A stretch of 64,000 bases of DNA from an uncultured Spirochaetota bacterium (GCA_963820525.1 CAWGAA010000003.1:32001-96000); one strand, 5' to 3'. Positions 6,104-39,376 are shown, counted from the first letter of the stretch. Notes: generated from the letters alone by a model not told the origin. Numbers and translations: made by a program.

Positions 6104-6409
6104 GGGTTACTCCATTACGGCCTTGCCCAAGTTTTCCATGAGGGCCATGAGCACAGTGACGCTCATCAGACGCTGCTAGTATACACTCCCTGTCAATCGC
6201 CTTCATCGCCCATGTTCGCCGGTCTTCTGAAAGTGCTGTCACCGAGTCTTTCAAACCTCACGTAAATCGCTGCACGTTTCCGCTGTCGGGCCGAACGACG
6301 AGATGCGGCTCGCTGCCGAGACATTTCTCGGCTCGCGAAAAGGGTTCATAAGCGTCAAAGGCACGGCCGAAGCGATGGCCCTTCCGTCGGCATAGCGGGC
6401 AGCGCGCCC

Positions 6410-6825
6410 TCAATTACAGCAGCCGCTCTTCGCTCCACTGCCCCCGCCGCAGTCAGAGGCCGCGGCCGTGCTATTGCCGTCGGCCGACCCGGCCTTGCCT
6501 GCTGCTTGGCCGGCCTCTCCGCATCCGCCTGCCCCTGCCGCTCCCCTGCTCTCCCCACCGCACCCACAAGAGGGCTCTCTGCCGGTAAGGGCGCCGTTGA
6601 TGATCGCCGCGGCGCAACCTACGCCGCTTTTCACCTTTTATGGCTCCAAAGCGGCAGTTGGCTTCGCAGGCGCCGCACTCCATGCACAGGTCGCGGTCGG
6701 TGAGCAGGGCCTTGCCGCCGTTCACCCTATCGGAGTCCGGCATGAACACGCCGTGGGGGCACACCTCCCAGCAGCGGCCGCAGCCCGTGCACGCGGCCGG
6801 ATCGTAGGTCAGGGTCACAACGATC
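6410..6825 (-). pseudogene. hgcB: Second hgcB copy: 5'-truncated, +1 frameshift near 6635, fused to an istA fragment
   Basis: CTGCGRCWEVCPHGVF, CMECGACEANC, GVGCAAAII and terminal GCCN; highly similar to 27737-28145. Confidence 0.9.
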
Positions 6826-7202
6826 ATGGCCTCGCCATACAATCGCGCAATCTCCCCCTCGCTGGGAATCTCCGTGCGCACATCCAGCCAGCCTTCCCGA
6901 AGTGCGAGGTCCCGGACGGCCCGGATAACCGTCTTATGTCGACCCGTGTCCCGATGGATGGCTTTTACCGACTGGCCGAGCCGAAGCCGCTGCACGATCT
7001 CCCGTAGCTCCACCATTTGTACCCTCCTTGGCATGTTCCCCTCCCTGCGCCGATGGATGATGAGATCCATCATGGCATAGGGGGTCGTTATTCCTGCCGA
7101 GAGGGGGGGTCGCCAAACGTGCCGACCGGGGGGTCGTTTTACTTGACGGGGAGGGGGTCGCTATAAATGACGGACTGGGGTCGTTTACTATGCCGGTTTA
7201 CA
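6826..7202 (-). mobile_element. istA: IS21-family left end with truncated istA (HTH only)
   Basis: MPRRVQMVELREIVQRLRLGQSVKAIHRDTGRHKTVIR; terminus TGTAAACCGGCA at 7202; GGGGTCG repeats at 23-25 bp spacing. Confidence 0.8.
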
Positions 7203-7232
7203 CCAGGGGGTCGCTTACAATGCCGATTTACA
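7203..7232 (-). mobile_element. Isolated second IS21-type terminal repeat
   Basis: TGTAAATCGGCATTGTAAGCGACCCCC is similar to the end at 7202 and in the same orientation. Confidence 0.65.
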
Positions 7233-7470
7233 TGGGCGGGCTGCGGTATCATTCCACGTCCGATTCGCTGTAGGCTCGCCGCGTGCGTCTGTGGCGTCCT
7301 CCTGGTCTGTTGTTTTTCACCAACTCAACTAAACCAGATGAGGACGCCTCTTTTCTATCCTCAATTGTGCGAAAGAAAATATACGTTATCGAGCTGAATG
7401 TTGGCGCAGACCAAATCAATAACAAGAAATGCCATTCAGCGAATTGGCCTACTTTTTCAGCGATCCCTGA

Positions 7471-8796
7471 CTAATAGTCTTTGCCGAGAACCGCCGGTGG
7501 AATCTTACCATGCAACTTGAACCAGCGGATTGGGTTGTCCCTCAGTAGCCACTTGCCAACACTGAAAGCCCTTTCTTCGGTCATGGACTTCTCCATTACC
7601 TTGTCAGCAAGCACCTTCGCGATGTTCTCTCTCGCCATCACTGCGTGTCCGTAGCTTCCTTCAATGAAAATGAAATCTCCTCCAAAACCATGGATCTTGT
7701 TTGCCGGAATAGCATCCAGAAAATCGCTCAAGGCCCGACGCCCCGCAGCAGGATTGATGACCCACATCCAACAGAAATCCACTGTTACATTGGGAAAGTT
7801 CTTGGCCAATGTCACCAGCTCCTCCTGGTAGGGGTAGCTTATGTGGTAAATATCGAAGCGCACCTTTGGGTACTTGAAGAATAGGTTTGCCAGCAGTGTT
7901 GCCCTCGAGTTGCCGATAGTATTCCCGTTTCCCTCCTGTAAGCCCGTATGGAACTTCACCGTAAGGTCTTCCCTCGCACATTGCTGCAAGCTGAAATGAA
8001 CAAGATAGTCCTGAACCGCCCGCAACTCATCAATCGAAGGTAGACCAATGTTGCGCTCCCAGGCTGCATTCAAGAGGCGATTGAATATGGGCTCGATCTC
8101 CGACCGGGAGCGATCGGGAAACGCAATCGGCCGGAAATACGCCAGCGGGATCTTTAGCGCAGCAGCTTGCGATGCGTACGCCCTGAAACGCTCTTCAATG
8201 GATTCCAGGTAGTCGTCGAGGCAAAGTATTTCCCGCCCCCAGTGATCCTGCCAGCCCACCTCTTGTATCATTAGATGAGGAGAGAGCAAGTCCTGTATGA
8301 ATAGGCTGCGATCATAGTCCGGCGTCCACATTCGAGGGATAGGCCCAAGCCTGTCAAGACGGTTCCATAAAGCTATTGCTATCCCGGCTTTATTGAACGC
8401 CTCACGGTAGAATCCTGGCCTTCGTCGTTCATTCATTAGTTTTGACAACGGCTCTACCGTATTCTCGTTCAAGCCCTCCAACCCGTATAAGTCGCGGACA
8501 GCAAGTTCGAGGCAACGCCCGTATCCCGTTCCCCGCACGAAACCCCAGTAGGGTTCGATCAGCTTCCACTTCTCCCGTGGGCTCAATGTGTGGTCAGTCT
8601 GAACCTTCTCGACATCCTCCAAAGGGCAGCCAGCAGAGACGAGGTCACAATTTGCATAATGGACAAAAAGTCGCCCGAAGTCGACGCGCTGAGCGCACAG
8701 CTCTTCCTCTGTGTCCAGGTGTTCGTGCGTATCGATAATGCGTACGCTATCCAGATACTTTCGTATTTCCCCTTCAAGCCCTCTATCCGTAGGCAT
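7471..8796 (-). CDS. Amidohydrolase-superfamily protein (amidohydro_2/uronate-isomerase-like)
   Basis: IIDTHEH, KFHTG, DIYH, VDFCW, KIHGFGGD metal-binding motifs. Confidence 0.8.
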   Translation of the reverse strand: MPTDRGLEGEIRKYLDSVRIIDTHEHLDTEEELCAQRVDFGRLFVHYANCDLVSAGCPLEDVEKVQTDHTLSPREKWKLIEPYWGFVRGTGYGRCLELAVRDLYGLEGLNENTVEPLSKLMNERRRPGFYREAFNKAGIAIALWNRLDRLGPIPRMWTPDYDRSLFIQDLLSPHLMIQEVGWQDHWGREILCLDDYLESIEERFRAYASQAAALKIPLAYFRPIAFPDRSRSEIEPIFNRLLNAAWERNIGLPSIDELRAVQDYLVHFSLQQCAREDLTVKFHTGLQEGNGNTIGNSRATLLANLFFKYPKVRFDIYHISYPYQEELVTLAKNFPNVTVDFCWMWVINPAAGRRALSDFLDAIPANKIHGFGGDFIFIEGSYGHAVMARENIAKVLADKVMEKSMTEERAFSVGKWLLRDNPIRWFKLHGKIPPAVLGKDY

Positions 8797-8986
8797 AGCG
8801 ACCTCCAGTAATTATTGTAACCTCTCGAGCCCGCTCAAAGCACAGCTCAGCATCCGCGGAGAAAATGCACCACCTCGAAATTCGTAAATAGAGAATTCAC
8901 CTATCCTTTCCTACCCGATCTGAATTCATTCAGCGCTACGACCGCGCTTGCGGCGCTCCCTATTATCAGAATTTGATATGTCCGTT

Positions 8987-10492
8987 TTAGGTTAAGTACA
9001 TGCCAATGCGCTCACTGATTTCCTCGTAGCTCAAATGCCTTTCATTCAAATCTTCCAGCTCACCAGCAATTCTGAAATCCCTAAATACAAGTATGCGCCT
9101 GGCTAAATCTATCATTTCAGCCATCTCCGATGAGATCAAGATAATACTTTTACCCTCATCATTTGCCATTTTCCAGATCAAGTCATGTATATACTCTTTG
9201 GCTCCTACATCAACGCCAATTGTTGGCTCATCGAGTATCAGGATATCGCAATCGGCGACAAGAGATTTGGAAATAGACACTTTCTGCTGATTCCCGCCGG
9301 AAAGATTGTTGACTATCTGCATAGGCGATGGCGTCCGTATGTCCAGTTTTTGTATCATTGACATTGTCTGTTCAAATTCTTTTCTAGGACTTATAAAGCG
9401 CGTTATTCGTGATGCAAGCCTTTTCCATATCGTTATATTGACGTTCGTATTCACAGATGCGCTTAGTATTAGACCCTCTTCTCTTCTGTTTTCTGAGATA
9501 TAGCCTATTCTGTACTTCTGCAGACTGTCATGTACTGAGGTGATTTTTGCTTTTTGGCCTTTCACGATTATCTGACCCGATTCATACGGGTATTCGCCTA
9601 TGACTGTCTTTGCTAGTTCTGTACGCCCTGAGCCAACCAGTCCGTAAAGTCCAAGTATCTCACCTTTATAAAGCTTGAGACTTATATTCTTAAACAACTT
9701 GCTAGTCAGATTTTGCAGTTCGAAAACTGGAGCCGACCTGTCACTCTTGAGATAGCCTCGCCACTCATCTCTTGGATTCCGACCTATCATCATGTTGACA
9801 ATATTCTCTCTCAACAAGCCTTCGACAGCTCGCGTGCCTACGCATCTTCCATCACGCAGGACGGTTACCACATCGCAAATCTCTAGTACTTCCTCCAGTT
9901 TATGTGACACAAATACAATGACCACGCCTTGTGATTTCAGTTTTCTTAGCAGCCTGAACAGGTTTTCGACTTCATTTGACGTCAGTGAAGACGTAGGCTC
10001 GTCCAGCAGCAAGACCTTCGCGTCTGCCGATAGCGCTTTTGCGATTAGGGCCAACTGTTTTTGAGCTGTGCTCAATCGCCCTATTTCGATATTCGGCGGT
10101 ACGTTCAAGCCCACTATTTGCATGTACTTACTTGCTTCTTTTTTCAGTTTCTTCCAGTCGATGGCAAGCGATTTTTTAAATAGGTAGAGCTTATCCAGCA
10201 TGATGTTTTCTGCAACAGTGCTCAGAGGGATTACTTGAATTTCTTGGCTGACAAGGCTTATTCGCCTATCGATTGCATCCTTGAAATCATGAAGGGCGAG
10301 CGCTCTTCCGTCGAGAAAGATTTCGCCCTCATCGGGCTTGTAGACACCACACATGATGTTGATCAATGTTGATTTTCCCGCTCCGTTTTCGCCTAACAGA
10401 GCATGTATCTCGTTTTCATTGAACGCCATCGATACATTATATAGCGCCTTAACCCCGGGAAAGGATTTGCTTACTGATTTGATCTCAAGCAC
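8987..10492 (-). CDS. Sugar ABC transporter ATP-binding protein (RbsA/MglA type)
   Basis: GENGAGKST; two NBD halves; LSGGNQQKV; DEPTIGVDVGAK. Confidence 0.95.
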   Translation of the reverse strand: MLEIKSVSKSFPGVKALYNVSMAFNENEIHALLGENGAGKSTLINIMCGVYKPDEGEIFLDGRALALHDFKDAIDRRISLVSQEIQVIPLSTVAENIMLDKLYLFKKSLAIDWKKLKKEASKYMQIVGLNVPPNIEIGRLSTAQKQLALIAKALSADAKVLLLDEPTSSLTSNEVENLFRLLRKLKSQGVVIVFVSHKLEEVLEICDVVTVLRDGRCVGTRAVEGLLRENIVNMMIGRNPRDEWRGYLKSDRSAPVFELQNLTSKLFKNISLKLYKGEILGLYGLVGSGRTELAKTVIGEYPYESGQIIVKGQKAKITSVHDSLQKYRIGYISENRREEGLILSASVNTNVNITIWKRLASRITRFISPRKEFEQTMSMIQKLDIRTPSPMQIVNNLSGGNQQKVSISKSLVADCDILILDEPTIGVDVGAKEYIHDLIWKMANDEGKSIILISSEMAEMIDLARRILVFRDFRIAGELEDLNERHLSYEEISERIGMYLT

Positions 10493-10515
10493 AAATCCGC
10501 CCTTTTCTTCGCAAA

Positions 10516-10548
10516 ATGTCCTGCCGGCCCGTAAGGCCGGTAGGACAT
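10516..10548. terminator. Intergenic stem-loop between SBP and ATPase genes
   Basis: ATGTCCTGCCGGCC-CGTAA-GGCCGGTAGGACAT inverted repeat. Confidence 0.6.
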
Positions 10549-10564
10549 GATTCGTAAATCACTC

Positions 10565-11587
10565 TCACTTAGAGAGATACTTCACTGTCAGATCAGCTTT
10601 GATTTGCGTTGTTACCTTTTTTAGATCTTCCTTGTAGGTCCTTACATTGTCCTTATTCAGAACAACGATTCCAGCGTTTATCAAATATGGGGCTCCCTTG
10701 GCCGGCTTATAGCCTTTGGCCATGAGCTCCAATATCGACATCGCCAGATATCCTTGACCATACGGGTTTTGTGCGATTGAGCCATCAAGGTATCCCTTCT
10801 CAATTGCATCGAGAATAATGGGGTCATCGTCTATCCCAACGCACCTCAAGTGAATTCCGTTCTTCTTCTCGAAGTCCGTGAGGAACTTCGCAAGAGCAAC
10901 CGTAGGCACAAAACCTGTTACGATCGCTCCCTTGACGTTCGTCATGTTTGCAGACACAGCAGCTTCGATCTTCTCGATAGCCTCCTGCTCAGATCTGATG
11001 TTCGCAATATCCACAAGGGTTATATCTGGATACTTCTCTTTTACCTCATAAATTGAATCTTTGCGAATCTTCGTGTTAGGGTCTTCGAGGAGTTCAAGTA
11101 CGTTGATGATTGTTCCCCTACCTCCAACTGCCTTGAATACGGTCTCAGCAGCTATCTTGGCGGCATAACCCACATCTGTCATCACTGCGAAGCTGGCTGG
11201 AGTAGGCTGAATGGATGAAGCACCATATTGTACAATGGCACCGCCTTGCTTCACGACTTCAGAATAAAGACCGTTACTCGCACTTGGATCAGAAGGAAAA
11301 GCGGCCATGAACTTATAGCCTTGAGCAACGAGAGCAAGAACACCTGTGTTCATGCTGTCCTGGTTCCAATCCGGGCCTACTTGGATTTTTACTTCGATGT
11401 TCGGATTGTCAGCGGCAAAACCTTCCGCCCCCTTCTTGCACGCTTCACCGAATGGATGTGGAGCCGGGTAATACCAGCCGAGCTTGATTTTCCCTCCTCC
11501 TTTTTCACCAGCGCCTCCTGCCCACAGGCAAAACGTGCCTGCCAGTAGCATTAGAATTGCCGCTGCAAGGATTTTCGAACTTTTCAT
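10565..11587 (-). CDS. Sugar ABC transporter substrate-binding protein (RbsB-like)
   Basis: Signal peptide; VGIDDD...GSIAQNPYGQGY. Confidence 0.9.
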   Translation of the reverse strand: MKSSKILAAAILMLLAGTFCLWAGGAGEKGGGKIKLGWYYPAPHPFGEACKKGAEGFAADNPNIEVKIQVGPDWNQDSMNTGVLALVAQGYKFMAAFPSDPSASNGLYSEVVKQGGAIVQYGASSIQPTPASFAVMTDVGYAAKIAAETVFKAVGGRGTIINVLELLEDPNTKIRKDSIYEVKEKYPDITLVDIANIRSEQEAIEKIEAAVSANMTNVKGAIVTGFVPTVALAKFLTDFEKKNGIHLRCVGIDDDPIILDAIEKGYLDGSIAQNPYGQGYLAMSILELMAKGYKPAKGAPYLINAGIVVLNKDNVRTYKEDLKKVTTQIKADLTVKYLSK

Positions 11588-11661
11588 GACTCGCTCCTCC
11601 TGTGAATTCTTCGATCGCTCCTTAATAATCCATCAACGATGGATCAATACACATTCCTGCC

Positions 11662-12627
11662 TCAGGTCCTTTCTCCCTTTGCGATTCGCATGCGGAAGAA
11701 GTCAACTCCGACAGCGAGTAGAATGATAAAACCAAGGAAAGTGGACTCGAAATAGATGTTGACTCCAAGCATGATAAGTCCATTGCGGATAAGCGCCATC
11801 AACAAGCCAGAGAAAAAGAAACCAAAAGGGGCTACTGTTCCACCTGCCAGTGACGTTCCGCCTAAAATGGAGACGGCAAAAGAAACAATCAACCAATCCT
11901 GTCCAGTTGCGGGTTGAGCAGTCCCCATGCGTGAAATCCACAACATAGCTGATATTGAGGCGAGAACACCTGAAATGATGTGAGCGAGCATAATCATTCT
12001 GTCAGTCTTTATACCCGAGAGTCTTGCGGCCTGTATGTTCCCGCCGGTAGCCAGCAAGTGTCTGCCCACTATTGTAAATCGAAACACGTAGAAACCGATA
12101 CAAAGCATGGCGATCATCAGAATAAGCATTAGAGGGAATCCTCCCACATCCCCTTTGCCTATGATAGTAAAGGAATCCGATATCAGATATGGCTTTCCTT
12201 TGGATATGCCATTCAATAGGCCGAGGTACACAAAACTCGTTGCGAGCGTGACGATAAATGTGTTCAAGCCCATTTTTGTTATAATCAGACCATTCACTGA
12301 ACCTGCTACAAAGCCTACCAGCAGTCCAGCGGCCACTGCTATTAAAGGATGAACATGAAACACTTCCATCATTACGCCCACAATGACCGTTGTGAGGCCT
12401 CCAATTGAGCCGAGGGACAGGTTCATCCCCCCTACCACTAGCACTACTGCCTGTCCCAGGGCGATGAAAACGTTCTGTGACGCTGAGCGAAACACATTGA
12501 AAAGGTTGAACGGTGTGAAAAAGGCCTCGGCAGAGACTGAGAAGACGATGAACAGAACAATCGTCGCAATAATAGTACTGGAATCGTTGCGCTTTAGAAA
12601 TGAACGGAAGATATTCTGCTTCTGCAT
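11662..12627 (-). CDS. Sugar ABC transporter permease (RbsC-like)
   Basis: GGMNLSLGS; ATGGNIQAARLSGI; ILGGTSLAGG. Confidence 0.93.
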   Translation of the reverse strand: MQKQNIFRSFLKRNDSSTIIATIVLFIVFSVSAEAFFTPFNLFNVFRSASQNVFIALGQAVVLVVGGMNLSLGSIGGLTTVIVGVMMEVFHVHPLIAVAAGLLVGFVAGSVNGLIITKMGLNTFIVTLATSFVYLGLLNGISKGKPYLISDSFTIIGKGDVGGFPLMLILMIAMLCIGFYVFRFTIVGRHLLATGGNIQAARLSGIKTDRMIMLAHIISGVLASISAMLWISRMGTAQPATGQDWLIVSFAVSILGGTSLAGGTVAPFGFFFSGLLMALIRNGLIMLGVNIYFESTFLGFIILLAVGVDFFRMRIAKGERT

Positions 12628-12903
12628 CTTTGCTAGCTCTGAAACTTCATTCGATTTGCAGAGGCTAGATACACATTATCGTCGCGCTGTTTCCTGAAAG
12701 CAATATCTAAAAAGCTATACTTTCCCTTTAAAAAATTGACAAATTCACCCTTAAAACTTGAAACTGGGCTATTTTCTCTTTTTGAGAAGAATTTCCAAAG
12801 GGTCTTCCAGATACAAGACAAGGCTGCAGCAATATCCGCAGAACAGAGACCCACTGACGAGTGCGGCTTGAATCTCTCAATCCGCACGACAAGCTGCCCC
12901 GGT

Positions 12904-14634
12904 TCAGGCCCTTATCCTTAGCTGCGATGGATAAAATCCCTTATACTTTTTGAAGAGGGTGTAGAAATAGCTTACATTCGAATACCCGACGCGCTTCGCA
13001 ACCTGGCACGCCTTTAGGGTTTTGAACCGGAGGAGCTCTTCAGCCTTCCGCAGTCGAAGGTCGTTCAGATAAGTCGTGAAAGACATCCCTATTGCGTCGT
13101 GCAACAATCGCCCAAGGTACGTAGAGGAGAGATTGAACTGACAAGAAAGCACCTTCAGTGAGAGCTGCTCAGAGTAGTTCCTATTGACGTACCGGATTAT
13201 TCTATCTATCTTGCTTTCAGCCCGCTTCTCAAACATGATGGTTCTGATCACATCTTTCGAGATCCGACAAAGCCATTCCAGGGTTTTTCTTGGTGTCTTC
13301 TGGTTGAAGAGGTTCTTATAAAGACTCTCGAAGTCACTCAAGAGGGTCTGTTCATCCAAATCATTGATTCTCAGGAGATGAATGAGAATTGAGAGAACTT
13401 CGATTGAGAAGCCGCGGAAGAACTCCGGCGTTATGAGCTCTGACTCAACAAATGTGTTGTAAACATCCTCGAAGAACTTATCGACCTGGGTTTCATCCCC
13501 GTTTAGGATGGAAGCGGTGAGGAGCTGTAAAGAGACGCTGGAAAACTCAGGCTTCTTTAGCAGGAAGTCATCGACATTTTCCCGGGTTATGATGTTCACA
13601 GGAAGATTGTTGACAGGTTCGATAGCTAGGCCGTTGAACCAGTCAGCAGCTATCTTCATTGGCAGGGCGCCATCCGCCTGAGCAGGCTGGAATGTGAGCG
13701 CGTGGAGTTTTCCTTCCTTCACCAGCTGCATTCCCTTCTGCGTGTTGCCTGCGCTAACCATGATGATATCTTCTCTTCCAGCCTTCCTTATCGCCTCGTT
13801 GATCCCGTCCAGCCATGTTCTGTCGTCTGGGCATATGATCCCCTGTAATCCATGCCCGAACCTCCTGATCCAGCCCGTCACCAAGTTCATAGTCCTTTCG
13901 GCGCTAATCTCACCTTCTTTCCCAGCCGGACTCATTGCCAGACACTTCATCTTCGGGGCGAACTTCTTCAACTCCGTAATGACAGAGTATGTTCTGGAGT
14001 AATAGCAGGAGGTCCCCGGTAGGTGGCGGACGATAACATACCCGCCTTCGAATCCCATGCTCTTAGCGAAATGCCGCGCTAGAATTCGAAACGACCCCCA
14101 ATCGTCAGGGCCACACCAAGAGATGATGTACTTATGCGCTTCGACTTTAGGCATCAGGTTGCTTACGATTATCGGGATACGCTGCGCGTGCATTTCCTTT
14201 ACCCAACTCGTGCACGCCTCTATGTTAATGGGCACCAAGATCACGAGGTCTGGCTTCTCCCGGATCGCCTTTGAAACTTGCCTGCTCTGTCCTTCCATGG
14301 TCATATCCGCAGTCAGCGTCAGTAGCCTGACACCATATCTTTCCGCGATCTTGGATAGACCTTCAGCAAAAGCAGGAAAATACGGATGACGCGTGCCTGG
14401 CTGTAGGTAAACAACTTTCTTGCCCTTGGGGCCGTTTCCCGGGGATTCTGGCAGATTGACTTTCTTGATCCCCCAACCTGCATACTCCATGTTGTACCAG
14501 TGCCGTTCATCATCTCTTGGAAATCGCTCGGCTCTCTGTGGGCGGGGCGGGATGTCCTTGCCCTTCGTGTTCCACAATATCAGTAGACGGTCTTCACTAA
14601 AAAGCATACGGAATCTCCAATAAAAGGGCCCCAC
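12904..14634 (-). CDS. AraC-family regulator with N-terminal sugar-binding (periplasmic-binding-protein fold) domain
   Basis: RbsB-like domain (PDLVILVP, GIICPDD) plus C-terminal AraC HTH (VAKRVGYSNVSYFYTLFKKYKGFYPSQLR); start uncertain. Confidence 0.85.
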   Translation of the reverse strand: MGPFYWRFRMLFSEDRLLILWNTKGKDIPPRPQRAERFPRDDERHWYNMEYAGWGIKKVNLPESPGNGPKGKKVVYLQPGTRHPYFPAFAEGLSKIAERYGVRLLTLTADMTMEGQSRQVSKAIREKPDLVILVPINIEACTSWVKEMHAQRIPIIVSNLMPKVEAHKYIISWCGPDDWGSFRILARHFAKSMGFEGGYVIVRHLPGTSCYYSRTYSVITELKKFAPKMKCLAMSPAGKEGEISAERTMNLVTGWIRRFGHGLQGIICPDDRTWLDGINEAIRKAGREDIIMVSAGNTQKGMQLVKEGKLHALTFQPAQADGALPMKIAADWFNGLAIEPVNNLPVNIITRENVDDFLLKKPEFSSVSLQLLTASILNGDETQVDKFFEDVYNTFVESELITPEFFRGFSIEVLSILIHLLRINDLDEQTLLSDFESLYKNLFNQKTPRKTLEWLCRISKDVIRTIMFEKRAESKIDRIIRYVNRNYSEQLSLKVLSCQFNLSSTYLGRLLHDAIGMSFTTYLNDLRLRKAEELLRFKTLKACQVAKRVGYSNVSYFYTLFKKYKGFYPSQLRIRA

Positions 14635-14896
14635 GAAGCATTGAAGGCACGGTCAGCGAGCGATTGATAGCAACTACTATAGGTCCTCTGCGGGTGATTG
14701 CCAAGTGGTGAGGCCGCGAGGCGGCATAAAGCGGGTCTTGCAAGCCGTGAGCTGCGGATTGAGTAGCCGCCCATGAGGGGCATCAAGGGGAGAATCGACG
14801 CGCGAGTTGCGGCGGGCAGAAGAAGGGATGCCATCGCTCTCTGTATCCACACTGAAAGGACGGACTGGCCCCCAGGGTGGAGGGAGGGGAGAGGAA

Positions 14897-16637: not shown

Positions 16638-16649
16638 GTCCGACGCAAA

Positions 16650-17161: not shown

Positions 17162-17371
17162 ATCAGGGAGTTAAACGGCTGGGGCAAGACTTTCCATATA
17201 ATGCATTATTTCCTTTCGAGTTACTTCATTGCCACTCATAGTCAAACGAAAACGACCATGAGGTCGGGTCAAACGCCCTGGAGATATAACCGAAAGTTGT
17301 GGATGAGGCAAGAAAAAGAGCGTATCCTTCGATGTCCATCAGCCAAACGAAACACCGAAAGGAGTACGCTC

Positions 17372-29190: not shown

Positions 29191-29223
29191 CGAGTGCCAG
29201 GGTACGCCGGGCGGAAATGCCTG

Positions 29224-30504: not shown

Positions 30505-30628
30505 CTCCGAGTCCCCCGATCCCCAATGTCTTAAAGTATCGCGGAGGCCGGGCAAGAGGTCAACGCGTTGCCCCGGAAATCGCGGCCCTTCCGCATCGCC
30601 CAACGCCGCGCTATGATGGGCCTCGCAG

Positions 30629-31423: not shown

Positions 31424-31450
31424 GCCCCACTCCCTGCCCTCCCGTTCGCG
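31377..31450 (+). repeat. 74-bp direct repeat, copy A (DUF72 3' end and flank)
   Basis: Matches 39303-39376 with 5 mismatches. Confidence 0.92.
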
Positions 31451-31544
31451 AACGGGTGGGAAACCGTGTACGCGTTCTTCGGCATCTCTTCATCCAAGGA
31501 TTCTTCCCGGGCACCGAATCAGTCCGGGACCATGCGGAAGAGCT

Positions 31545-32366
31545 TCAATTATGGGGATGAGCCCGCCGACTCTCCAGCCAGACGGCCAGCCTGGCGAAAT
31601 AAGAGTCATTCGGATTCGAATCGACCGCCTTCAAGAGGGCATTCACAACGTATTTAACCTGACCGTGGATGGGGCTAGTCGGGAAGCACTCCACGAGCGA
31701 GCATCCCGTCTTCAACGCGGCATCGGTGTAGTCGGGGTCGAACTTCATGTATCCGGCGAATCTGATCGGGACCTCCTTTTTCAGGAGGGAGACAACCTCG
31801 TCCTTCGTGTCCTGGAAGAACACCGCAGCCTCTTCGAGGTGCCCGGCGTTCATGACGACGACGGCGATCGGCGTGTTTATATCGCGCCCGGCGAGAGTCC
31901 GGGCAGCCTGGTATACCCAACCGGGAGTGGAGGGCCCATTCACCACGAAAAGGACCACCTCGTCGGCGGGTGTGGGAAGTCCGGTCTCAGGGATGGAGGA
32001 TCCGCGAATAAGCACAGTGCCGTATCTCGATCCCTCCGCGAGAAAAAGCTTTTTCTGCCGCGCGTCGGAGAGGCAGGCGCACAGGTTACTCAGCCGGATG
32101 GCGGGGATGGCTGCGGCGGTGTAGTGCTCGAAGTGCTTGTCCAGCCTGTCCCGCGCGGCCGCCCGAGACTGCTGCATGCTGAAAGGGGGCGAATCAGTGA
32201 AAACCGCGAGCGGCGAATTGCCCTTCGACGCAAGCTCCACGAGGAGGTTTTCCAGAGCGAGAGTCGTGAATCGTTCATCCGCGTTTCCCACACAGAACAA
32301 GGCGTGCGTTCCCCGCGGGGACTGCTGCCCCGCCCCCGGTGCGGGCCGCTCTGACGAGCCGCTCAT
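31545..32366 (-). CDS. MinD/FlhG/FleN-like protein lacking a recognisable Walker A motif
   Basis: ADEVVLFVV...VYQAARTL...IAVVVMNA..LEEA...FAGYMKFD...SLVECFPTSP resembles the FlhG C-terminal half. Confidence 0.55.
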   Translation of the reverse strand: MSGSSERPAPGAGQQSPRGTHALFCVGNADERFTTLALENLLVELASKGNSPLAVFTDSPPFSMQQSRAAARDRLDKHFEHYTAAAIPAIRLSNLCACLSDARQKKLFLAEGSRYGTVLIRGSSIPETGLPTPADEVVLFVVNGPSTPGWVYQAARTLAGRDINTPIAVVVMNAGHLEEAAVFFQDTKDEVVSLLKKEVPIRFAGYMKFDPDYTDAALKTGCSLVECFPTSPIHGQVKYVVNALLKAVDSNPNDSYFARLAVWLESRRAHPHN

Positions 32367-34477
32367 GCCGACCCTCCCGAGCGGCGCATCGCCTCGGCGA
32401 GGGCGTCGATGTGCTCCTTATCGAATTTGCGGCCGACCCCATCCCTGATCACCGCGATCGCCGCCTCGTAACTGAGCTTCTCCCGATAAGGCCTGGCGCT
32501 TGTGAGCGCCACGTAGGTCTCCGCCACCCCAATGAGCTTGGCGAATAGGGGGATCTTCGGCCCCTTCAGGCCTTTCGGATATCCCGAGCCGTCGTTGCGT
32601 TCATGGTGGTAGAGGATGCCGTCCTTGAACTCCTCCGGCATCTTCATCCCTTTGAAATATTCCACGCCCTTCTTCGTGTGGCTGCGTATGAACTCGAAAT
32701 CTTCCTCTGTCAGCACCGGTTTGCCGAGGATGCGCACAAGCCTGTCGGGGTCCAGAAGCAGGTAGCCCGCATCGTGGGCCAGGGCGGATTTGTAGAGAAG
32801 CTCGGCGTCCGCGGTGGACAAGCCGAGCCCCCGGGCCATGCCCCGGGCGACTCTCGCCGTGACCGTCGAGCGTTCCCGGTCCTTAAGGATTTTTCTCAGA
32901 TTCTCCGTGATCTCCATGAGCTTCGGAAGACCGAGCGGGGAATCGTCGGCCTCCTGCGTGGCCCCCTGGCCAAGCATGGGGAGGAGAGCCCTTCCCTCGC
33001 GGGGCCTACCCGCCAGCGTCTCGCGCACAAGACTCTCGGCCTTCTCTCTGAGGTAATCGTCATGCTCGGTCAGGAAAGGAAAAAGCACGGGCAGGATGGC
33101 GCGGGGGTCGCTGCCGTCCTCCTCCATGATTCTGTTCTCGACCACCTTGAGGATCTCTATCCTGAGGTCTTTCTCCAGCTCGCCGATGTACTCGCGAACT
33201 GTTTCCCACTTCAGGCTCCCCTGCTTCATCTGCTCGTGCATCCGCCTGATTCTCTCCGCCCGCATGAGATCACGGTACATCCCGGCGTCCCCCCCGGAAG
33301 GCGCCGTTTCGGCTGGTTTTTCAGTCTCCGGGTAAAATTCGAGCAGCATCGATTCGCCCACGGCTGCACGGCCCCGCTCCTGTTTTTCGGCCTCGCCGCC
33401 GAATGACATCGCCGGATACGCCAGGGCGGTCTCCCTCGAGCCCAGCACGCGCCTGCGGCGGAGCTGGGCGCGCACGATCAGTAGAATAAACAAAATCACG
33501 AGAAGGGTGACTATTCCCAAGCCGCCGAAGAGGAAGAGATTACGCGCCGAGAGCGTCTGGAACTGAAGCTGGTAGAGCTTATTCTGCTCCGCGAGTTGAT
33601 CGGCGAGATACTTCGTGCCCTCCTGGCTCGCGGCGCCCTGCATGTCTATGTTTTTCTGGTAGAGCTGGAGAAGCTCGGTGAGCGCTTTTGCGTCCCTGCT
33701 GGCCGTCTGGTCGTTGTTTTGGACCCGCTGGTTCAGCTGTTCGATCATCGTTCTATACCGTTCCATGTCCATCTTCAGCGCCTGACTCTCGCCCTGGGCC
33801 GCGAGCGCGGACGCTCGAATGGCTTCCAGTTGCCGCTCGGCTTCCTCTTTCTGCCGCTCCAGCTCGGTCTTGAGGGCGGCGCTCTCCTGGGTGGCGGTGG
33901 ACGTCGACGCGCGGAGGGCCGCCAATTCCTGCTCGGTTTTCTCCAGTTTATCAAGGGCCTCCTTGTAGACAGCGGAGCCCTCCACCAGCGCGGGCGTGGC
34001 GCCACCGACTGTCGTTCCCCCCGTGGCCGTTCCTCCGGCAGCCGTGCTCCCCGCCGTCTCCGTCCCGCCGCCCGTCGCTCCCGCGCCTTGCGTCGTGGGA
34101 GCTTTCTGCGCCGCTTCATCCGCCTCGTTCTTCAAGGCATTGATATTCATCTCGGCTTTCATTTGCCAGAAATACTTTGAAGCGATCTGGTTTGTCGGCG
34201 AGAGCTTCACCGCGTTCTTGAAACACTCGTAGGCGTTCTTGAAATTACGCCGACTGTACTCTTTCGCTCCGATGTCCGCGTACGCGTCGGCCAATGATCT
34301 TTTCGCTGTCGTGTTGGTCGGGCCGCTCGACAGGGCAACACCGAGGGTCTTCAGGGCGTCCGCCGCGTTTCCCGCCGCGTACTCGGACTGCGCCTGCTTG
34401 ATGAGATCGTCCAGACCGGCTGCGGAAAGACCGACGACGGCCAGGAAGAGTAGGAGCGAAACGGCCGATTTCTTCAT
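32363..34477 (-). CDS. Signal peptide-TPR-coiled coil-TM-HD-GYP domain protein
   Basis: MKKSAVSLLLFL signal; TPR-like helices; long coiled coil; TM LFLFGGLGIVTLLVILFILLIV; AHDAG and HHERNDGSGYP. Confidence 0.88.
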   Translation of the reverse strand: MKKSAVSLLLFLAVVGLSAAGLDDLIKQAQSEYAAGNAADALKTLGVALSSGPTNTTAKRSLADAYADIGAKEYSRRNFKNAYECFKNAVKLSPTNQIASKYFWQMKAEMNINALKNEADEAAQKAPTTQGAGATGGGTETAGSTAAGGTATGGTTVGGATPALVEGSAVYKEALDKLEKTEQELAALRASTSTATQESAALKTELERQKEEAERQLEAIRASALAAQGESQALKMDMERYRTMIEQLNQRVQNNDQTASRDAKALTELLQLYQKNIDMQGAASQEGTKYLADQLAEQNKLYQLQFQTLSARNLFLFGGLGIVTLLVILFILLIVRAQLRRRRVLGSRETALAYPAMSFGGEAEKQERGRAAVGESMLLEFYPETEKPAETAPSGGDAGMYRDLMRAERIRRMHEQMKQGSLKWETVREYIGELEKDLRIEILKVVENRIMEEDGSDPRAILPVLFPFLTEHDDYLREKAESLVRETLAGRPREGRALLPMLGQGATQEADDSPLGLPKLMEITENLRKILKDRERSTVTARVARGMARGLGLSTADAELLYKSALAHDAGYLLLDPDRLVRILGKPVLTEEDFEFIRSHTKKGVEYFKGMKMPEEFKDGILYHHERNDGSGYPKGLKGPKIPLFAKLIGVAETYVALTSARPYREKLSYEAAIAVIRDGVGRKFDKEHIDALAEAMRRSGGSA

Positions 34478-34497
34478 GGCTACATTTCTCCTTCTGC

Positions 34498-37400
34498 CTA
34501 CGGCCTGTACGTGACCGCGACGTGGCCGTAGCGGCCGGCGGGCATGCTCGCGAGCGTGGTCCATGTGCCGGGAGTCGCGGGAGGGGGGAGCGAGGTCAGG
34601 TTGCAGAGGTTGCTCAGATCGAACGAGTACACATTGTTCACGCCGCTGGCGGAGGCCAACAAAGTTGAAGTGCCGCCGAAAACGTACATGATCGATCCTG
34701 AAAGGGCGGCGGAGCTGAACCCATACGATTGGGGAAAGACGCCGGTGGTGCCGCCGTTCGCCCAGACGGCCGTGCCGGTGAATGGATAGTACAGGAACTG
34801 AAATACATTGGTCGGCGTGCTTGTTGCGCCCATTCCATTGACGATGAAGCACTGGGGGGTTCCCGAAAGGGCGGTGAATCCCCCGACGATCGCCATGATC
34901 GTGGGACCCGAGGTCGGCGTATATATCACGCCGGATATACCGGTTCGGGCAAGGGCGGTATATGGCGTAACGCCTATATTCAAGACGACTTCCTGGCCCG
35001 CCGTGAGGCCTCCCGTGGTGGGGGGACTTGAGACGGCAAGTCCGTCATGCGTGGAGGCCGGCGTGGCTGCGGCCGTGCGCCCGCCGAAATTATAGATGAC
35101 GTCGCCGTACGCGAGTGCGAAGCGTTCTGACCCGGCTGCGCCGAATGCGACCTTCCCGGTATACCAACTGCCGGCTGCGCCGGAAACGGGCGTGTACTCG
35201 TATGTGGTAGTCGTGGCCGCGCCCGCCCATGCCACGCCGGCTGCGCCCGTGGTTCCGCCCAATACGTAGATTCTATTGTTCACTACAACCGCGTGGATGT
35301 TCGCCTTTGCGACGGGCATCTGGGCCGGCACGGGGCTGGTCTGCCATGAATTGGCTGCTATATTATAGATCTGCACCGAGCTGAGAACGGCGCCGCTTGA
35401 ATTGAATCCGCCGATCACGTAGATGTTCCCTCCCAATGAGCACGCCGCGGCGAAACTCACGGGAGTGGGCAAGGTAGTGACGGCTTGATACCAGGTATCG
35501 ATTACCGGATCGTACAGATCGACATTGGCGACAACCGAACCGATGAGATTCGTCGAGAGCCCGCCGATCATCCATATCCCGCGCTGTTTCTTCGCCAAGG
35601 TGGGTTCCGCCTCGGTCGGGGTGAACGAGTTTTCGGCGCTCACCACGAAGGGCAGGGTCGCGCTGTAATTCTTCACCCTGTAATAGTAGACTTGGTTGCT
35701 CGTCAGCCCCGAAAGGGTGACCGAGTGCGAGGTGCCGGCGGTCTGCGACTGGATCGTAGAATACGCGTAGGTGCCTGACCCGGCGTGGGACACTGTGTCG
35801 TACTCCACGAGGTGGGTCGTGGCTACGTTCGTCGTCCAGGTGATGTCGGCCGTGGTCGATGATGTGGGTGTCGCCGTGAGAAGCGTCACAGCTATCGCGA
35901 TGGTTGTGGTGAAGGTGTACCCGCTGTCCACCTTCGCCGGTCCCGTGCCCACGAAATTCCTGAGTTGGTAGGAATATTGGGTCGACGGGCTGAGCCCGGA
36001 CAGGGTGATCGTGTGCGAAGTGGTAGGCGTGGTGGATTGCAGCGTGGCGTACGTGTAGGTACCGGGGATGGTGCCGTACTCGACAAGGTGGGTGGCGGCG
36101 ACGTTCGTCGTCCATGCGATGTTCGCAGTCGTCGCCGCCGGCGTCGCGGTAGGCCCCGCGGAGACGGTGATGGCGGGCGTCGTGAAGGAGCTCTCGGTGC
36201 TCACGGAGTCGGGCATGGATGGATTGAAATTCCATACCCGGTAGTAGTACTTGGTTGATTCCGAGAGTCCGGAGAGGGTAACGGAGTGGGATGTCGCGGC
36301 CGTCTGTGAAACCGCGGTCGCGTACGCGTAGGTTCCGGTCGCGGTGCCGTATTCCACGAAGTGGGTGGTGGCCACGTCCGTGGTCCAGCTGATCGTGGCC
36401 GCGCTGGGCGACGTGGGTGTCGCCGTGAGGAGCGTCACCCCTATTTGGACAACGGCCGTCGTGGTGAACGAATAGGGGCCGTCCACCTTCGCCGGTCCCG
36501 CGCCCACGAAGTTCCTGAGCCTGTAAAAATATTGGGTCGACGGACTGAGCCCGGACAGGGTGATCGTATGCGAAGTCGCGGCGGCCCCCGACGAGTACGC
36601 GGAATATTCATAGGTACCGGAGACGGTACCGAAATCCACCACGGCCGTCGTGGCGACGTTCGTCGTCCATGAGATGTCCGCCGTCGTTTCCGACGGCGTT
36701 GCGGTAGGCCCGCCGGTGACGGTGATCGTGTTCGTCGTGAAGGATCTCTCGGTGCTCACGGAGTCGGGCATGGACGGGTTGAAATTCCTCACTCTGTAGT
36801 AATACACGGTGGATTCCGCGAGCCCGGAGAGGGTCACGGAGTGGGACGTATTGGCCGTCGGCGAAAGTACGGTCGCGTACGCGTAGGTGCCGGACACGGT
36901 GCCGTATTCCACGAAGTGGGTGGTGGCCACGTCCGTGGTCCAGGTGATATCGGCCGTGGTCGGCGATGTGGGTGTCGCCGTGAGGAGCGTCACCTGGATC
37001 ACCGGCGTAGCCGTGGTTGCGAACGAGCCCTCCGCACTCAACGTGGCGGGCATCGTCGTGTGGAAATTCCGAACCCGATAGTAGTACGTGGTCGATGCAG
37101 CAAGCCCCGTCAGGGGGACGGAGTGGGAGGTGTCGGCGGTCAGTGACTGGATCGTTGAAAGGTCGAGGCTGCCGGAAGTCGTGCCGTATTCCACGAGGTG
37201 CGTTGTCGGCACGTCCGTGATCCAGGCGACATTGGCCGTCGTTTGCGATGAGGTCGCCGCGAGCCCCGTCACTTGGATTCCCGGGAATGCAATCGTGGTG
37301 AACGTGTTCTCCGCGCTCTTCGAAGCCGACATCTCGGCGTCGATGTTGGTCACCCGATAGTAGTACTGGGTAGATGCCGTGAGTCCCGACAGGGTGACGG

Positions 37401-37662
37401 AATGTGAGGTGTCGGGGGTCTGCGACTGGGCCGTCGCATTGGAATACGCTCCCGAGACCGTTCCATATTCCACGAAATGGGTGGTCGGTTTCTCCGTGGT
37501 CCACGCGATAGTCGCACCCGTTTGCGAGGCCGTCACCGAAAGCCCCGTAATGACGACCGACTTCGTGCCCGGCGGAGTCTCAAGCAGCGACCCGTTGCAT
37601 GAGGCGAGCGCGACCGTCAACGCCATATACAGGAAAGGCTTCATGAATGATTTCCCTTTCAC
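34498..37662 (-). CDS. Surface lipoprotein with 7 Fn3-like repeats and a C-terminal Kelch propeller
   Basis: Lipobox LASC; seven W-T/I-T...VEYG...HSVTLSGL...YYYRV units; Kelch motifs IYVIGG, IYVLGG, MYVFGG. Confidence 0.88.
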   Translation of the reverse strand: MKGKSFMKPFLYMALTVALASCNGSLLETPPGTKSVVITGLSVTASQTGATIAWTTEKPTTHFVEYGTVSGAYSNATAQSQTPDTSHSVTLSGLTASTQYYYRVTNIDAEMSASKSAENTFTTIAFPGIQVTGLAATSSQTTANVAWITDVPTTHLVEYGTTSGSLDLSTIQSLTADTSHSVPLTGLAASTTYYYRVRNFHTTMPATLSAEGSFATTATPVIQVTLLTATPTSPTTADITWTTDVATTHFVEYGTVSGTYAYATVLSPTANTSHSVTLSGLAESTVYYYRVRNFNPSMPDSVSTERSFTTNTITVTGGPTATPSETTADISWTTNVATTAVVDFGTVSGTYEYSAYSSGAAATSHTITLSGLSPSTQYFYRLRNFVGAGPAKVDGPYSFTTTAVVQIGVTLLTATPTSPSAATISWTTDVATTHFVEYGTATGTYAYATAVSQTAATSHSVTLSGLSESTKYYYRVWNFNPSMPDSVSTESSFTTPAITVSAGPTATPAATTANIAWTTNVAATHLVEYGTIPGTYTYATLQSTTPTTSHTITLSGLSPSTQYSYQLRNFVGTGPAKVDSGYTFTTTIAIAVTLLTATPTSSTTADITWTTNVATTHLVEYDTVSHAGSGTYAYSTIQSQTAGTSHSVTLSGLTSNQVYYYRVKNYSATLPFVVSAENSFTPTEAEPTLAKKQRGIWMIGGLSTNLIGSVVANVDLYDPVIDTWYQAVTTLPTPVSFAAACSLGGNIYVIGGFNSSGAVLSSVQIYNIAANSWQTSPVPAQMPVAKANIHAVVVNNRIYVLGGTTGAAGVAWAGAATTTTYEYTPVSGAAGSWYTGKVAFGAAGSERFALAYGDVIYNFGGRTAAATPASTHDGLAVSSPPTTGGLTAGQEVVLNIGVTPYTALARTGISGVIYTPTSGPTIMAIVGGFTALSGTPQCFIVNGMGATSTPTNVFQFLYYPFTGTAVWANGGTTGVFPQSYGFSSAALSGSIMYVFGGTSTLLASASGVNNVYSFDLSNLCNLTSLPPPATPGTWTTLASMPAGRYGHVAVTYRP

Positions 37663-37675
37663 GGCTCCCTCCGTT

Positions 37676-38560
37676 TCAGAAGCTGTAGGCCGCGCCGATC
37701 GAAACCGACGGCAGGTGAAGCAAAGTACTTGTCTGTTGCACCGCGAGCCATCTTCCGCCGAGTCGGATCAGCAGGCGCGAGCTCAGATAGAAATCCAATC
37801 CCAGGTTCGCGCTGTAGACGAGATCGATCTCACCCCTCGAGGAGCCCGCCGCCTGGTCGCTCACCCCAATATACGCGATACCCGCGCCAAGGCCGAACCA
37901 GGGAACGAGATTCTTGATGACGGGTAGGGATGAAGACCAAAAACCGAGGTAACGGTAGATCGGGCAGGCGGTGGCCGTGGTGACGCTGTAGGAGAGGTTC
38001 CGGCCGGCGAGATAGGGCACAAAGAACTGCGAAATATCGAGACCCGCGAACAGCCCTCTGACGATTGGGAGGTTGACCTCCGCGAATGCGGAAGCCAAGA
38101 AGCCCGGACCGAACGACGCGCCAAGCGGACCAACGGTCAGATCGTACCCTCCGGTAAGCCCTACGTGGATGGGGAACCCGTAGTAGAGATTTCGCTGCGC
38201 CGGGTCCTGAATTCTGCGAATGCTGTCCGACGGAATGGTGAGCTCGCCGAAATCGAGATCGACGAAAAGCCCTATATCGGGGTCGAAATTCTTCACCTTG
38301 CCGCGTATGACGGAGCCGTCATTAAGGATGATCTCCACGGGCTGGACGCTGAGGGCGCTGTAGTCGGTCTCCATTTTAATCAACGCAGTGGAGGTCAATC
38401 GAATGGTTTTTCCGAACACATCGAGCGTGACGAACCCCCCCTCCGCGGAAGCCACCTGCCCCAGGAATATCGTGCCGTCTTCCGTGCGTATCACGTCGCT
38501 GAATGCAGGAGCGGTGATTCTGCAAACGATGATCAGGAGAAAGAGAACGCGGTTTCTCAT
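37676..38560 (-). CDS. Outer-membrane beta-barrel protein with duplicated small N-terminal domain
   Basis: Signal peptide; two D/N-G-x-x-x-x-G-x-V units; amphipathic strands PWFGLGAG, NLGLDFY; C-terminal YSF. Confidence 0.7.
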   Translation of the reverse strand: MRNRVLFLLIIVCRITAPAFSDVIRTEDGTIFLGQVASAEGGFVTLDVFGKTIRLTSTALIKMETDYSALSVQPVEIILNDGSVIRGKVKNFDPDIGLFVDLDFGELTIPSDSIRRIQDPAQRNLYYGFPIHVGLTGGYDLTVGPLGASFGPGFLASAFAEVNLPIVRGLFAGLDISQFFVPYLAGRNLSYSVTTATACPIYRYLGFWSSSLPVIKNLVPWFGLGAGIAYIGVSDQAAGSSRGEIDLVYSANLGLDFYLSSRLLIRLGGRWLAVQQTSTLLHLPSVSIGAAYSF

Positions 38561-38893
38561 TCAAAAGCCTCCCGGAATATCCGTTTCGCGAAAATAAAGT
38601 TACCTCTTGAACTTTCGGGGCCGAGAATGAGCGCGCGGCGGGCGGATCGTAGGATACGGCCATATCCTTGACGGCGAGGCGCTTTGAGCGCGGTCAAGAG
38701 TTTTGCAACGCACTCTTTTCCTTTAACGGCTATCATATAACCACCTCTGCCGGCCTTCTCCTAAAGGACTGCTCCTTGGCGGCGGCCATGAAAAAACAGC
38801 ATTGGAATCACCTAGCCGCCATATGCCTCAGTTTACAATTATATGCGTGTGACGCGCGGAATGCAATAAACGCGCGCCTTCTCTCCCCCTGGC

Positions 38894-39218
38894 TTACACT
38901 GAGCTGATCGAGATCTCCCGGCTCTTCAACCCGGAGCCCGGGATCACGAGTCTCCGGACACCTGAGTCCGTCCGTGCCCGAATCGATTCCGGATTAAGGA
39001 TGAGGCGATCGTGATCCCCCAGTAGGAAGAGCGCCCTCTCCCTCATTACGGCAAACTCTTCCGATTCGAACGCCCTTCTTCGGTGAACCATCAAGGACCG
39101 ATCGTTGAAATGCTTCAACAACATGAACCAAAGATCGAACAGCAGGGGATTGTCCAAAAGCACACTTCCTGGAGGGGAAGAGGGCTTCCGGCAGGAATGT
39201 CGTTATCATCCTCCAGAA
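38894..39218 (-). pseudogene. C-terminal gene remnant (possibly alpha/beta-hydrolase) cut by the ISCR oriIS end
   Basis: ALFLLGDHDRL...RLVIPGSG; abuts the third oriIS copy. Confidence 0.35.
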
Positions 39219-39303
39219 CGATTGATAGTAACTACTCTAGTGTCCTCTGCGGGTTATTGCCAAGTGGTGAGGCCGCGAGGCGGCAAAAAACGGGTCTTGC
39301 AAG
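39219..39303 (-). mobile_element. Third (85-bp) copy of the ISCR-like oriIS end
   Basis: Matches 14661-14744 with few mismatches. Confidence 0.88.
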
Positions 39304-39376
39304 GGACATGCGGGAAATCCTTCGCGAGGAGGGGCTCCCGGGCGCGTGAGGCCCACTCCCTGCCCTCCCATTCGCG
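39303..39376 (+). repeat. 74-bp direct repeat, copy B (duplicate of the DUF72 3' end)
   Basis: Encodes MREILREEGLPGA*, versus MREILREEGLPVA* at the end of DUF72. Confidence 0.92.

Follow-up and report, generated by a model that had tools for sequence, protein, structure and literature searches.

Why should an intact hgcAB pair, the genes for mercury methylation, be surrounded by diverged spare pieces of itself and by the origin ends of a mobile element? The patchy distribution of hgcAB is ascribed to horizontal transfer, and to our knowledge no vehicle for such a transfer is known. The question is raised by a 64,000-nucleotide (nt) stretch of DNA from an uncultured Spirochaetota bacterium (GCA_963820525.1 CAWGAA010000003.1:32001-96000, our G000:C3:32001-96000), referred to here as the window, which lies on a 1.08-Mb contig of a 5.05-Mb assembly with four contigs. 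A first-pass annotation of the window had described an ISCR-like rolling-circle platform for gene capture built around hgcAB. The anatomy of the locus, the family of its insertion sequence (IS), the ancestral gene order and the accessory nature of most inserted genes can be read from the comparisons described below. We give an even chance to the explanation that the locus is an old mosaic with an ISCR1-like layout, formed by one-ended rolling-circle transposition together with homologous integration of sister-lineage DNA.

The two genes are adjacent, the hgcB start and the hgcA stop overlapping in ATGA, and both exceed the curated NCBI cut-offs (Table 1). HgcA contains GINVWCAAGK, which we take to be its cap-helix motif. 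An IS91/ISCR-type origin end (oriIS) lies 39 nt from the hgcB stop, with diverged spare hgcA and hgcB pieces nearby. Repeat finding and a self-BLAST of the window, in which the tandemly repeated surface-protein gene was left aside, gave five repeat pairs, all direct; four of these had already been noticed in the first pass, which had missed the hgcA fragment. A layout of repeat, IS stub, oriIS, cargo and repeat occurs twice, once with hgcB and once with the 3′ end of the DUF72 gene. The minus-strand order proposed earlier (repeat, ISCR remnant, oriIS, cargo, repeat) is right in both cases, whereas the placement of DUF72 itself on the minus strand is not, the gene being encoded on the plus strand.

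The joints between these pieces are tight. Both stubs (2/2) lie 0-31 nt from a repeat boundary, and each of the segments 14662-27224 and 27225-39220 extends up to the base immediately ahead of the next co-oriented oriIS: cargo B extends to 27224, the last base ahead of the oriIS at 27225, and the final letters of cargo C, abutting the oriIS at 39221, are GAAC. The hgcB repeat begins 8 nt beyond the hgcB stop, the remainder of the stub-to-stop distance being a short filler. The 83-nt stub finishes at CTTGCAAG and is followed without a gap by D′, the copy of the DUF72 3′ end. The corresponding repeat at the full gene (31377-31450) consists of the last 47 nt of DUF72 and 27 nt 3′ of the gene; a hairpin at 31437-31460, holding GTTC, is complete at the full gene's copy alone, D′ being cut directly past its loop. 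The hgcB pseudogene copy B_1 has kept its own ATG and has lost the C-terminal CC tail through a 1-nt indel near 6634; it reaches 72 bits on NF040864, under the cut-off of 99. The 82 codons fused to it in frame match plasmid genes, 4/5 of them annotated as istA, at 29-36% identity, and a Pfam search of this fusion partner gave no significant match.

Comparison of the sequence beside B_1, beside A′ (the hgcA fragment) and around the filler, and of the start of cargo C with W (39377-42102), gave no further homology at E < 0.03, and a comparison of the ABC upstream region with the island gave nothing. Other candidates were rejected. The gene at 39381 does not derive from a duplication of the LOG gene (E 0.62); the pattern TTCTGGAG..GATGA, present in the sequence flanking both the 27225 and the 39221 end, was equalled in score by 29 of 300 shuffles; and GTTC, GAAC or CAAG, considered as a common cleavage motif, stands at or beside 2081, 28146, 31450, 39220 and 39303, but not 2235, 6401, 27224 and 27697.

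The three co-oriented oriIS ends, described in the first pass as about 12 kb apart, are located at 14662, 27225 and 39221, with spacings of 12,563 and 11,996 nt. The accompanying claim that each abuts or truncates a minus-strand gene holds loosely for abutment, an AraC/PBP regulator starting 27 nt from 14662, and truncation is not shown for any gene: this regulator is full length compared with its orthologues, and the minus-strand open reading frames (ORFs) nearest to 27225 and 39221 match no family. Behind the end at 14662 stands a full-length element, whose transposase pieces (14897-16637, minus strand) are broken into three frames and match the Pfam families Zn_Tnp_IS91 (PF14319) and Y2_Tnp (PF04986). 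The ISCR-like motif SQYIVRPP with its single catalytic tyrosine is present, as had been pointed out. The left end of the element (~16665) is an estimate, set where homology among four relatives begins, ~110 nt upstream of the TYRQRG codons. The genome has 17 Y2_Tnp matches in two groups, group A with six strong matches (E ~1e-60) and group B with weaker ones, including the window copy. Where group A has KYIGRYTHR with two tyrosines, group B has ALSQYI(A/V)RPP (alignment A1), alanine replacing the first tyrosine while the second tyrosine and the HUH motif (HWH/HLH) are kept. Two intact group B proteins of 453 and 597 amino acids (aa) score 137.2 and 130.5 bits on the IS91 model NF033538 (cut-off 125), and scores of 130.1, 98.7 and 102 bits fall short of the cut-off of 925 on NF052416, a model of ISCR clade Ia alone, so that this failure leaves the wider ISCR group possible. 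By these motif and model matches the window element is assigned to the IS91 family, with one predicted catalytic tyrosine as in ISCR elements. Its closest relatives come from Spirochaet- metagenome-assembled genomes (MAGs), and the nearest annotated one is a plasmid transposase with a single tyrosine (40% identity over 376 aa, E 4e-107).

A search for further oriIS ends, suggested in the first pass, was rewarded with six more copies on contigs C1 and C2. Among the copies aligned, nine (three in the window, five on C2, one on C1) converge 3′ of the transposase stop on TATAGTAGTTnCTATC and then diverge at once; since TATAGTAGTTnCTATC is shared by the three window ends and six other copies, these are true element ends and not chance matches. 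In the C2 copies the oriIS end is sharp and the opposite end ragged, with varying start points. The letters that follow CTATC in these copies are GTTT, GTTT, GTTC, CTTA, GTTA, GTTC, GTTT and CTTA (8/8 (G/C)TTN), which with T in second place resemble the tetranucleotide 5′-GTTC/CTTG given in excerpts of PMC13181058 as the IS91-family target beside oriIS. The window repeat search revealed no terminal inverted repeats of the element, and the insert in its transposase, resembling a miniature inverted-repeat transposable element (MITE), has no second copy elsewhere in the genome. The earlier idea of an ISCR analogue thus stands as far as family, single tyrosine, oriIS ends, twofold layout and ragged-ended genome copies are concerned, and fails at the clade Ia model. 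At C2:13306-14803 a tandem series of stubs (681, 681 and 137 nt), each ending at the same oriIS terminus, resembles repeated insertion beside an oriIS. In the surrounding ~60 kb (C2:5700-67100) a single-tyrosine IS91-family element is present in eight or more co-oriented copies, full or partial and 99% identical, several of whose breakpoints recur at one internal position (C2a coordinate ~66405).

To place the insertions, gene order was compared with that of metagenome loci and of relatives from a collection of 40 genomes, all of other genera, the closest being G004 (hgcA 69% identical); a metagenome search yielded no full-length DUF72 above 76% identity and one partial at 83%. DUF72 is followed by a convergent LOG gene within 4-65 nt, in match coordinates, in 3/3 relatives (G004, G007, G022) and in 10/10 metagenome loci with a right flank. 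On the other side, G004 has two ABC transporter genes 76 nt past hgcB, whose homologues in our genome lie ahead of the window in the same orientation (C3:21269-24869). The order ABC-ABC-hgcB-hgcA is found in G004 and in five of the six metagenome loci whose left flank is long, and L030, G007 and G022 differ. The reconstructed ancestral order is ABC-hgcB-hgcA-(MFS)-DUF72-LOG. Empty sites had been predicted elsewhere, with DUF72 next to the 39381 gene and hgcB next to the DNA left of 6402; relatives instead have DUF72 abutting the LOG gene (42103-42696), and the nearest ones have hgcB by the ABC transporter, here 34.9 kb off. The gap between DUF72 and the LOG gene measures 10.7 kb in this genome, which by the order in relatives has therefore gained 34.9 kb on the left and 10.7 kb on the right, ~45 kb in total. 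The three genes of W belong to this gained DNA.

Accessory status was judged by a comparison with 15 genomes of the same family. None of them has DUF4846 or the YARHG protein, one has the BNR protein, and the HD protein is matched in all 15 by its C-terminal HD domain only, never at full length. By this comparison both gaps are mostly accessory DNA. Cargo A was also considered as an orthologous operon that had been relocated, and this was rejected: in G004 the regulator alone is orthologous, the transporter genes being 26-38% identical.

The copies themselves hold some information on age and source. In the hgcB core (nt 22-210) 7/9 differences between B_1 and hgcB are synonymous, compared with ~40% expected for decay in place under a simple model (rough binomial P ~0.03). 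B_1 would therefore have been mostly under selection, as an allele of another lineage would be, and during the greater part of the time since the two copies separated it was probably functional elsewhere. The other copy pairs differ by 3.4-7%, which gives an overall range of 3.4-11%. Strains 90-99% identical are present in several wetland and sediment runs, and in run X5 a contig (98-99% identical) crosses the D′|W joint 39376|39377. Contig loose ends in run X1 at 27225, 27697 and 28142 continue into the flanks of each repeat's other window copy, and the duplications are therefore not an assembly artefact.

A second context of hgcB came to light when the genome contigs were searched with the transposase C-terminus. 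The 6009-nt contig L098 (also L105), binned with an Acidobacteriota MAG, reads in order: a HEPN_Swt1-DUF499 gene, ~310 nt, the last 56 nt of hgcA, hgcB, the 31-nt filler and the stub, and it terminates within oriIS. Its HgcB protein is identical to that of the window. Not a single substitution separates the two over 27660-28216, against ~20 differences in the stub, and in a mosaic comparison L098 agrees with hgcB at 27729-28142 at every site. The homology ends within hgcA at ...GGGAG|TATTG..., and the same nucleotide (within GGGAG) bounds A′ in the window from the opposite side. The bin lacks hgcA as well as all of the DNA at window 1-6401. As homologues of the HEPN-DUF499 protein (54-58% identity) occur in 4/40 spirochaete relatives, L098 may be a mis-binned sister strain. 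It may be read as a unit of one-ended rolling-circle transposition that comprises oriIS, stub, hgcB and hgcA′ and whose variable end falls in hgcA; under this reading and under the alternative given below, the hgcB-filler-stub module occurs in more than one context. The HEPN_Swt1-DUF499 protein itself (L105, G041:C133, 1408-4734) is a defence-like protein of 1108 aa, encoded directly upstream of the displaced hgcB module.

From this layout we infer one-ended transposition steps, homologous integration and an order of events, which could have run as follows. In this spirochaete family hgcB-hgcA-MFS-DUF72 forms an old block of the chromosome, and in the present lineage both of its ends would have been turned into entry points for accessory DNA. 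A single-tyrosine IS91-family element, or its origin-side stub alone, would have been placed 39 nt downstream of the hgcB stop, and copying from oriIS that overran the opposite end would have taken the adjacent hgcB and hgcA along. Units consisting of a stub plus a gene end could thus have been inserted into other DNA, which later returned and integrated by homologous recombination via the carried gene end, leaving a diverged second gene end beyond the cargo (hgcB at 6402-6827, the DUF72 3′ end at 39304-39376). More units would have been stacked directly against an existing oriIS (14662-27224 and 27225-39220). On the left side, if one-ended copying brought a stub and hgcB into a circular DNA made up of 6826-27224, and if this circle integrated within hgcB into a chromosome without the stub, the left layout would be reproduced exactly. 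The right side could follow the same scheme with a 74-nt anchor, if 39377-42102 was already present. IS21, IS256 and the MITE-like insert would have contributed as well to a structure that is now old and decayed. The earlier suggestion that gene ends served as homology anchors agrees with this layout, and the degree to which the copies have diverged agrees with a source in another lineage, but the anchoring role remains putative.

Several observations weigh against the old-mosaic explanation or limit it. The 3.4-11% divergence of the copies and the X5 contig across D′|W make the structure old and shared, hence neither a recent nor an active event, which tells against the explanation as a current process. 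The genome contains no intact transposase of the window subfamily, the nearest intact copies having 71-78% DNA identity, and the full-length window element bears an insert and frameshifts; an active platform is not supported by these findings, with a dead transposase at one window end, stubs at the other two, and no intact subfamily copy found in the genome. GTTC stands beside one of the three window oriIS ends (39221), with GCTC at 14662 and no such tetranucleotide at 27225, and in folding energy the oriIS ends do not surpass shuffled sequence (z -0.1 to -1.06, +0.41). The DUF72 anchor, 74 nt with a longest identical run of 19 nt, is short for RecA-type recombination. The explanation also calls for separate additional insertions: W, which separates D′ from the LOG gene, and the segments X1 (not the run of that name), A′ and Z, which separate B_1 from the ABC gene. 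Orthologues of the AraC/PBP regulator in cargo A are present in 9/15 same-family genomes at 60-66% identity, and therefore not all cargo is foreign. L098 is binned with another phylum, and it may pair with the A′|Z joint of the window, each being one junction of a single insertion into hgcA. Circle junctions and empty-site variants, which the first pass had proposed to look for, were searched in the short contigs of four runs with at least 30 letters required on the shorter side; none was seen, an absence that proves nothing. The same search gave no qualifying joint between 31450 and 39377, nor between hgcB and other DNA. Joints below the threshold measure 21-32 letters on a side and jump across unrelated spans, and in run X4 a contig begins 30 letters left of 31450, 1 letter under the bridging rule.

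A different history would dispense with rolling-circle capture altogether: a recombination hot spot between sister strains left a partial second allele (A′, B_1, D′), which was later cut by ordinary insertions and deletions involving IS91, IS21, IS256 and the MITE-like insert, so that the oriIS stubs are nothing but decayed insertions. Four kinds of mobile-element debris at the locus agree with this, as do the divergence of the copies and the mostly synonymous differences in the hgcB core, which suit allelic DNA of another lineage, the related strains seen in several runs, and the breakpoint common to A′ and L098, readable as the two hgcA junctions of one insertion with GGGAG on either side. 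We nevertheless consider it unlikely, though not to be dismissed lightly, because chance would hardly place both stubs within 0-31 nt of a repeat boundary in ~45 kb, because two cargo segments run precisely up to the terminal base of the oriIS that follows in the same orientation, and because a simple second allele would have A′ on the other side of B_1. The suspicion that two strains were merged into one contig during assembly is highly improbable; the genome is a metagenome assembly, related strains exist, and copies 89-97% identical look like co-occurring strains, but the duplicates are short (74, 154 and 424 nt) with novel joints and no long collinear stretches, the X1 loose ends run on into the flanks of the other copies, the contig measures 1.08 Mb in a four-contig assembly, and L098 has the same hgcB-filler-stub joint independently.

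One could also keep the transposition and drop the homologous integration, with units inserted serially beside an existing oriIS and gene fragments carried along or left by early termination, as in Helitrons. The tandem stubs on C2, the two segments that each halt at the next oriIS, the GAAC that closes cargo C beside oriIS, and the cut of D′ just past the loop of the GTTC-holding hairpin all suit this view, and the 83-nt stub is close to the 82 bp that, by the available part of PMC13181058, suffice in IS91. The hgcAB block would then be imported, yet it keeps its ancestral neighbours and orientation; B_1 has no stub on its oriIS side; and the tetranucleotides at the breakpoints are inconsistent between junctions. 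On balance such a purely transpositional origin appears distinctly improbable, and the old mosaic with homologous integration is the explanation we prefer.

Complex class 1 integrons with ISCR1 have a duplicated 3′ conserved segment (3′CS), a layout accounted for by a circle-plus-recombination model. The window locus resembles them in the succession of conserved segment, element on its terIS side (opposite to oriIS), oriIS, cargo and partial second copy, in the single tyrosine, and in the position of the element a few tens of nt past a gene stop: 39 nt after hgcB here, and 24 bp downstream of sul1 for ISCR1, whose variable region lies beyond its oriIS (PMC6218425, in part). Unlike ISCR1, the window element fails the clade Ia model; the anchors are the chromosomal genes hgcB and DUF72 instead of an integron segment, the genes carried are of metabolic and surface type, the copies are either dead or reduced to stubs, and the duplicates are 89-93% identical and down to 74 nt long. 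With IS91, IS801 and IS1294 the element has in common the HUH transposase with an N-terminal zinc-binding domain, and the two unlike ends without inverted repeats, the one-ended carriage of flanks and the sufficiency of a short oriIS may be likened (passages of PMC13181058). The same passages describe one-ended transposition as frequent in IS91, with 82 bp of the oriIS end sufficient, and IS91-type mobilisation is reported for up to 40 kb (parts of PMC13181058 and PMC6218425). Those three elements have two tyrosines, in IS91 Y249 and Y253 (PMC5714925, excerpt), IS91 being classed as Y2 and ISCR as Y1 (PMC10288648, excerpt), whereas there is one here, and GTTC stands at 1/3 of the window oriIS ends. 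The IS91-family element on the rmtE2 side of the Escherichia coli plasmid pS68 (NZ_KU130396.1) has the same single-tyrosine motif, with a captured gene beyond. It differs in belonging to a plasmid of clinical bacteria with a resistance gene as cargo, and at 40% identity it is a distant relative. We take the pS68 element to be ISCR20. Helitrons, too, capture flanking genes or fragments when the terminal hairpin is bypassed (PMC4778049, in part); as their Y2 Rep is fused to a helicase and they are eukaryotic, the likeness is an analogy only.

Element type and style of capture are thus already known, and what is new is their association with hgcAB. A survey of methylator genomes states that none of the hgcA genes stood near an insertion sequence or transposase (PMC7438021), and our literature search for hgcA or hgcAB with transposase, insertion sequence or mobile elements found no later report, supplements aside. 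As a finding on mobile elements alone the locus would be ordinary. If confirmed, it would offer a concrete, testable route for moving or rearranging mercury-methylation genes and an example of ISCR-style gene gathering outside antibiotic resistance. A further step is tentative and rather doubtful: hgcAB lies on that side of a complete-looking, transposase-less oriIS which rolling-circle copying would carry, so one-ended transposition of the IS91/ISCR type, driven in trans by related transposases, could be a natural vehicle for these genes between genomes, of which the duplicated gene ends might be footprints.

Table 1. Features of the window, and its direct repeats with their identity.
Feature	Coordinates	Strand	Remarks
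hgcA	28156-29190	minus	344 aa; NF040863 399.8 bits (cut-off 275)
hgcB	27737-28159	minus	141 aa, C-terminus SGCCK; NF040864 111 bits (cut-off 99)
MFS transporter	29224-30651	minus	member of conserved block
DUF72 gene	30629-31423	plus	intact
Single-tyrosine IS91-family element	14662-16665	minus	full-length, dead; oriIS end at 14662
MITE-like insert	15636-15989		354 nt, within the transposase of the full-length element; ~57-nt imperfect inverted ends 15645-15701 / 15917-15973
473-nt stub	27225-27697	minus	oriIS and last ~80 transposase codons, 2-nt frameshift
83-nt oriIS stub	39221-39303	minus	
Filler	27698-27728		31 nt; between stub and hgcB; same filler in L098
A′	2082-2235	minus	154-nt fragment of hgcA 3′ part; 7 substitutions and 1-nt deletion
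B_1	6402-6827	minus	hgcB pseudogene copy; 89% to 27729-28142
IS21-family istA-like gene	6828-7073	minus	first 82 codons; in-frame fusion to B_1
D′	39304-39376	plus	DUF72 3′ end copy, 93%
Repeat, IS end and transposase 3′ part	14663-15132 vs 27225-27697		96.6%, 473 nt
Repeat, IS end	27225-27307 vs 39221-39303		94%
Repeat, IS end	14658-14744 vs 39216-39303		92%
Repeat, hgcB	6402-6822 vs 27729-28142		89.1%
Repeat, hgcA 3′ part	2082-2235 vs 28212-28366		94.8%
Repeat, DUF72 3′ end	31377-31450 vs 39303-39376		93.2%
Cargo A	7471-14634	minus	amidohydrolase, sugar ABC transporter (ATPase, binding protein, permease), AraC/PBP regulator; GC 43-52%
IS256 (Mutator) family transposase fragment	17201-18202	plus	
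Cargo B	17728-26703		2 solute-binding proteins, dCache sensor, 2 ABC permeases, GH2 glycosidase in 2 ORFs
Cargo C	31451-39220		2 unknown ORFs, HD_5-domain protein, 1054-aa surface protein, more unknown ORFs
W	39377-42102	minus	223-aa unknown ORF, DUF4846, Zn-alcohol dehydrogenase; relatives without W at site
LOG-family (PF03641) gene	42103-42696	minus	ancestral right-hand neighbour of DUF72

Some features of the cargo and of the surrounding DNA may be added. The GH2 glycosidase of cargo B (24888-26703, plus strand) is represented by the overlapping ORFs 24888-26462 and 25870-26703, a frameshift being the probable cause. The 1054-aa surface-type protein of cargo C (34498-37662, minus strand) combines seven tandem repeats of ~276 nt, purple-acid-phosphatase N or fn3-like, with Kelch propeller domains. 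Beside the hgcA fragment, at 1101-1866, overlapping ORFs lie on opposite strands, one of them with a nucleotidyltransferase domain (NTP_transf_2), and may constitute a toxin-antitoxin-type module. The start of contig C3 (G000:C3:600-3685) carries an IS256-family element, present in three genome copies (94%), together with the left-hand portion of an IS91 copy of the C2 type. In G004 (G004:C9, L090, 8602-8805) a fragment of the same single-tyrosine IS91-family transposase, 68% identical over 68 aa, and the gene orthologous to the regulator of cargo A are ~9 kb apart.

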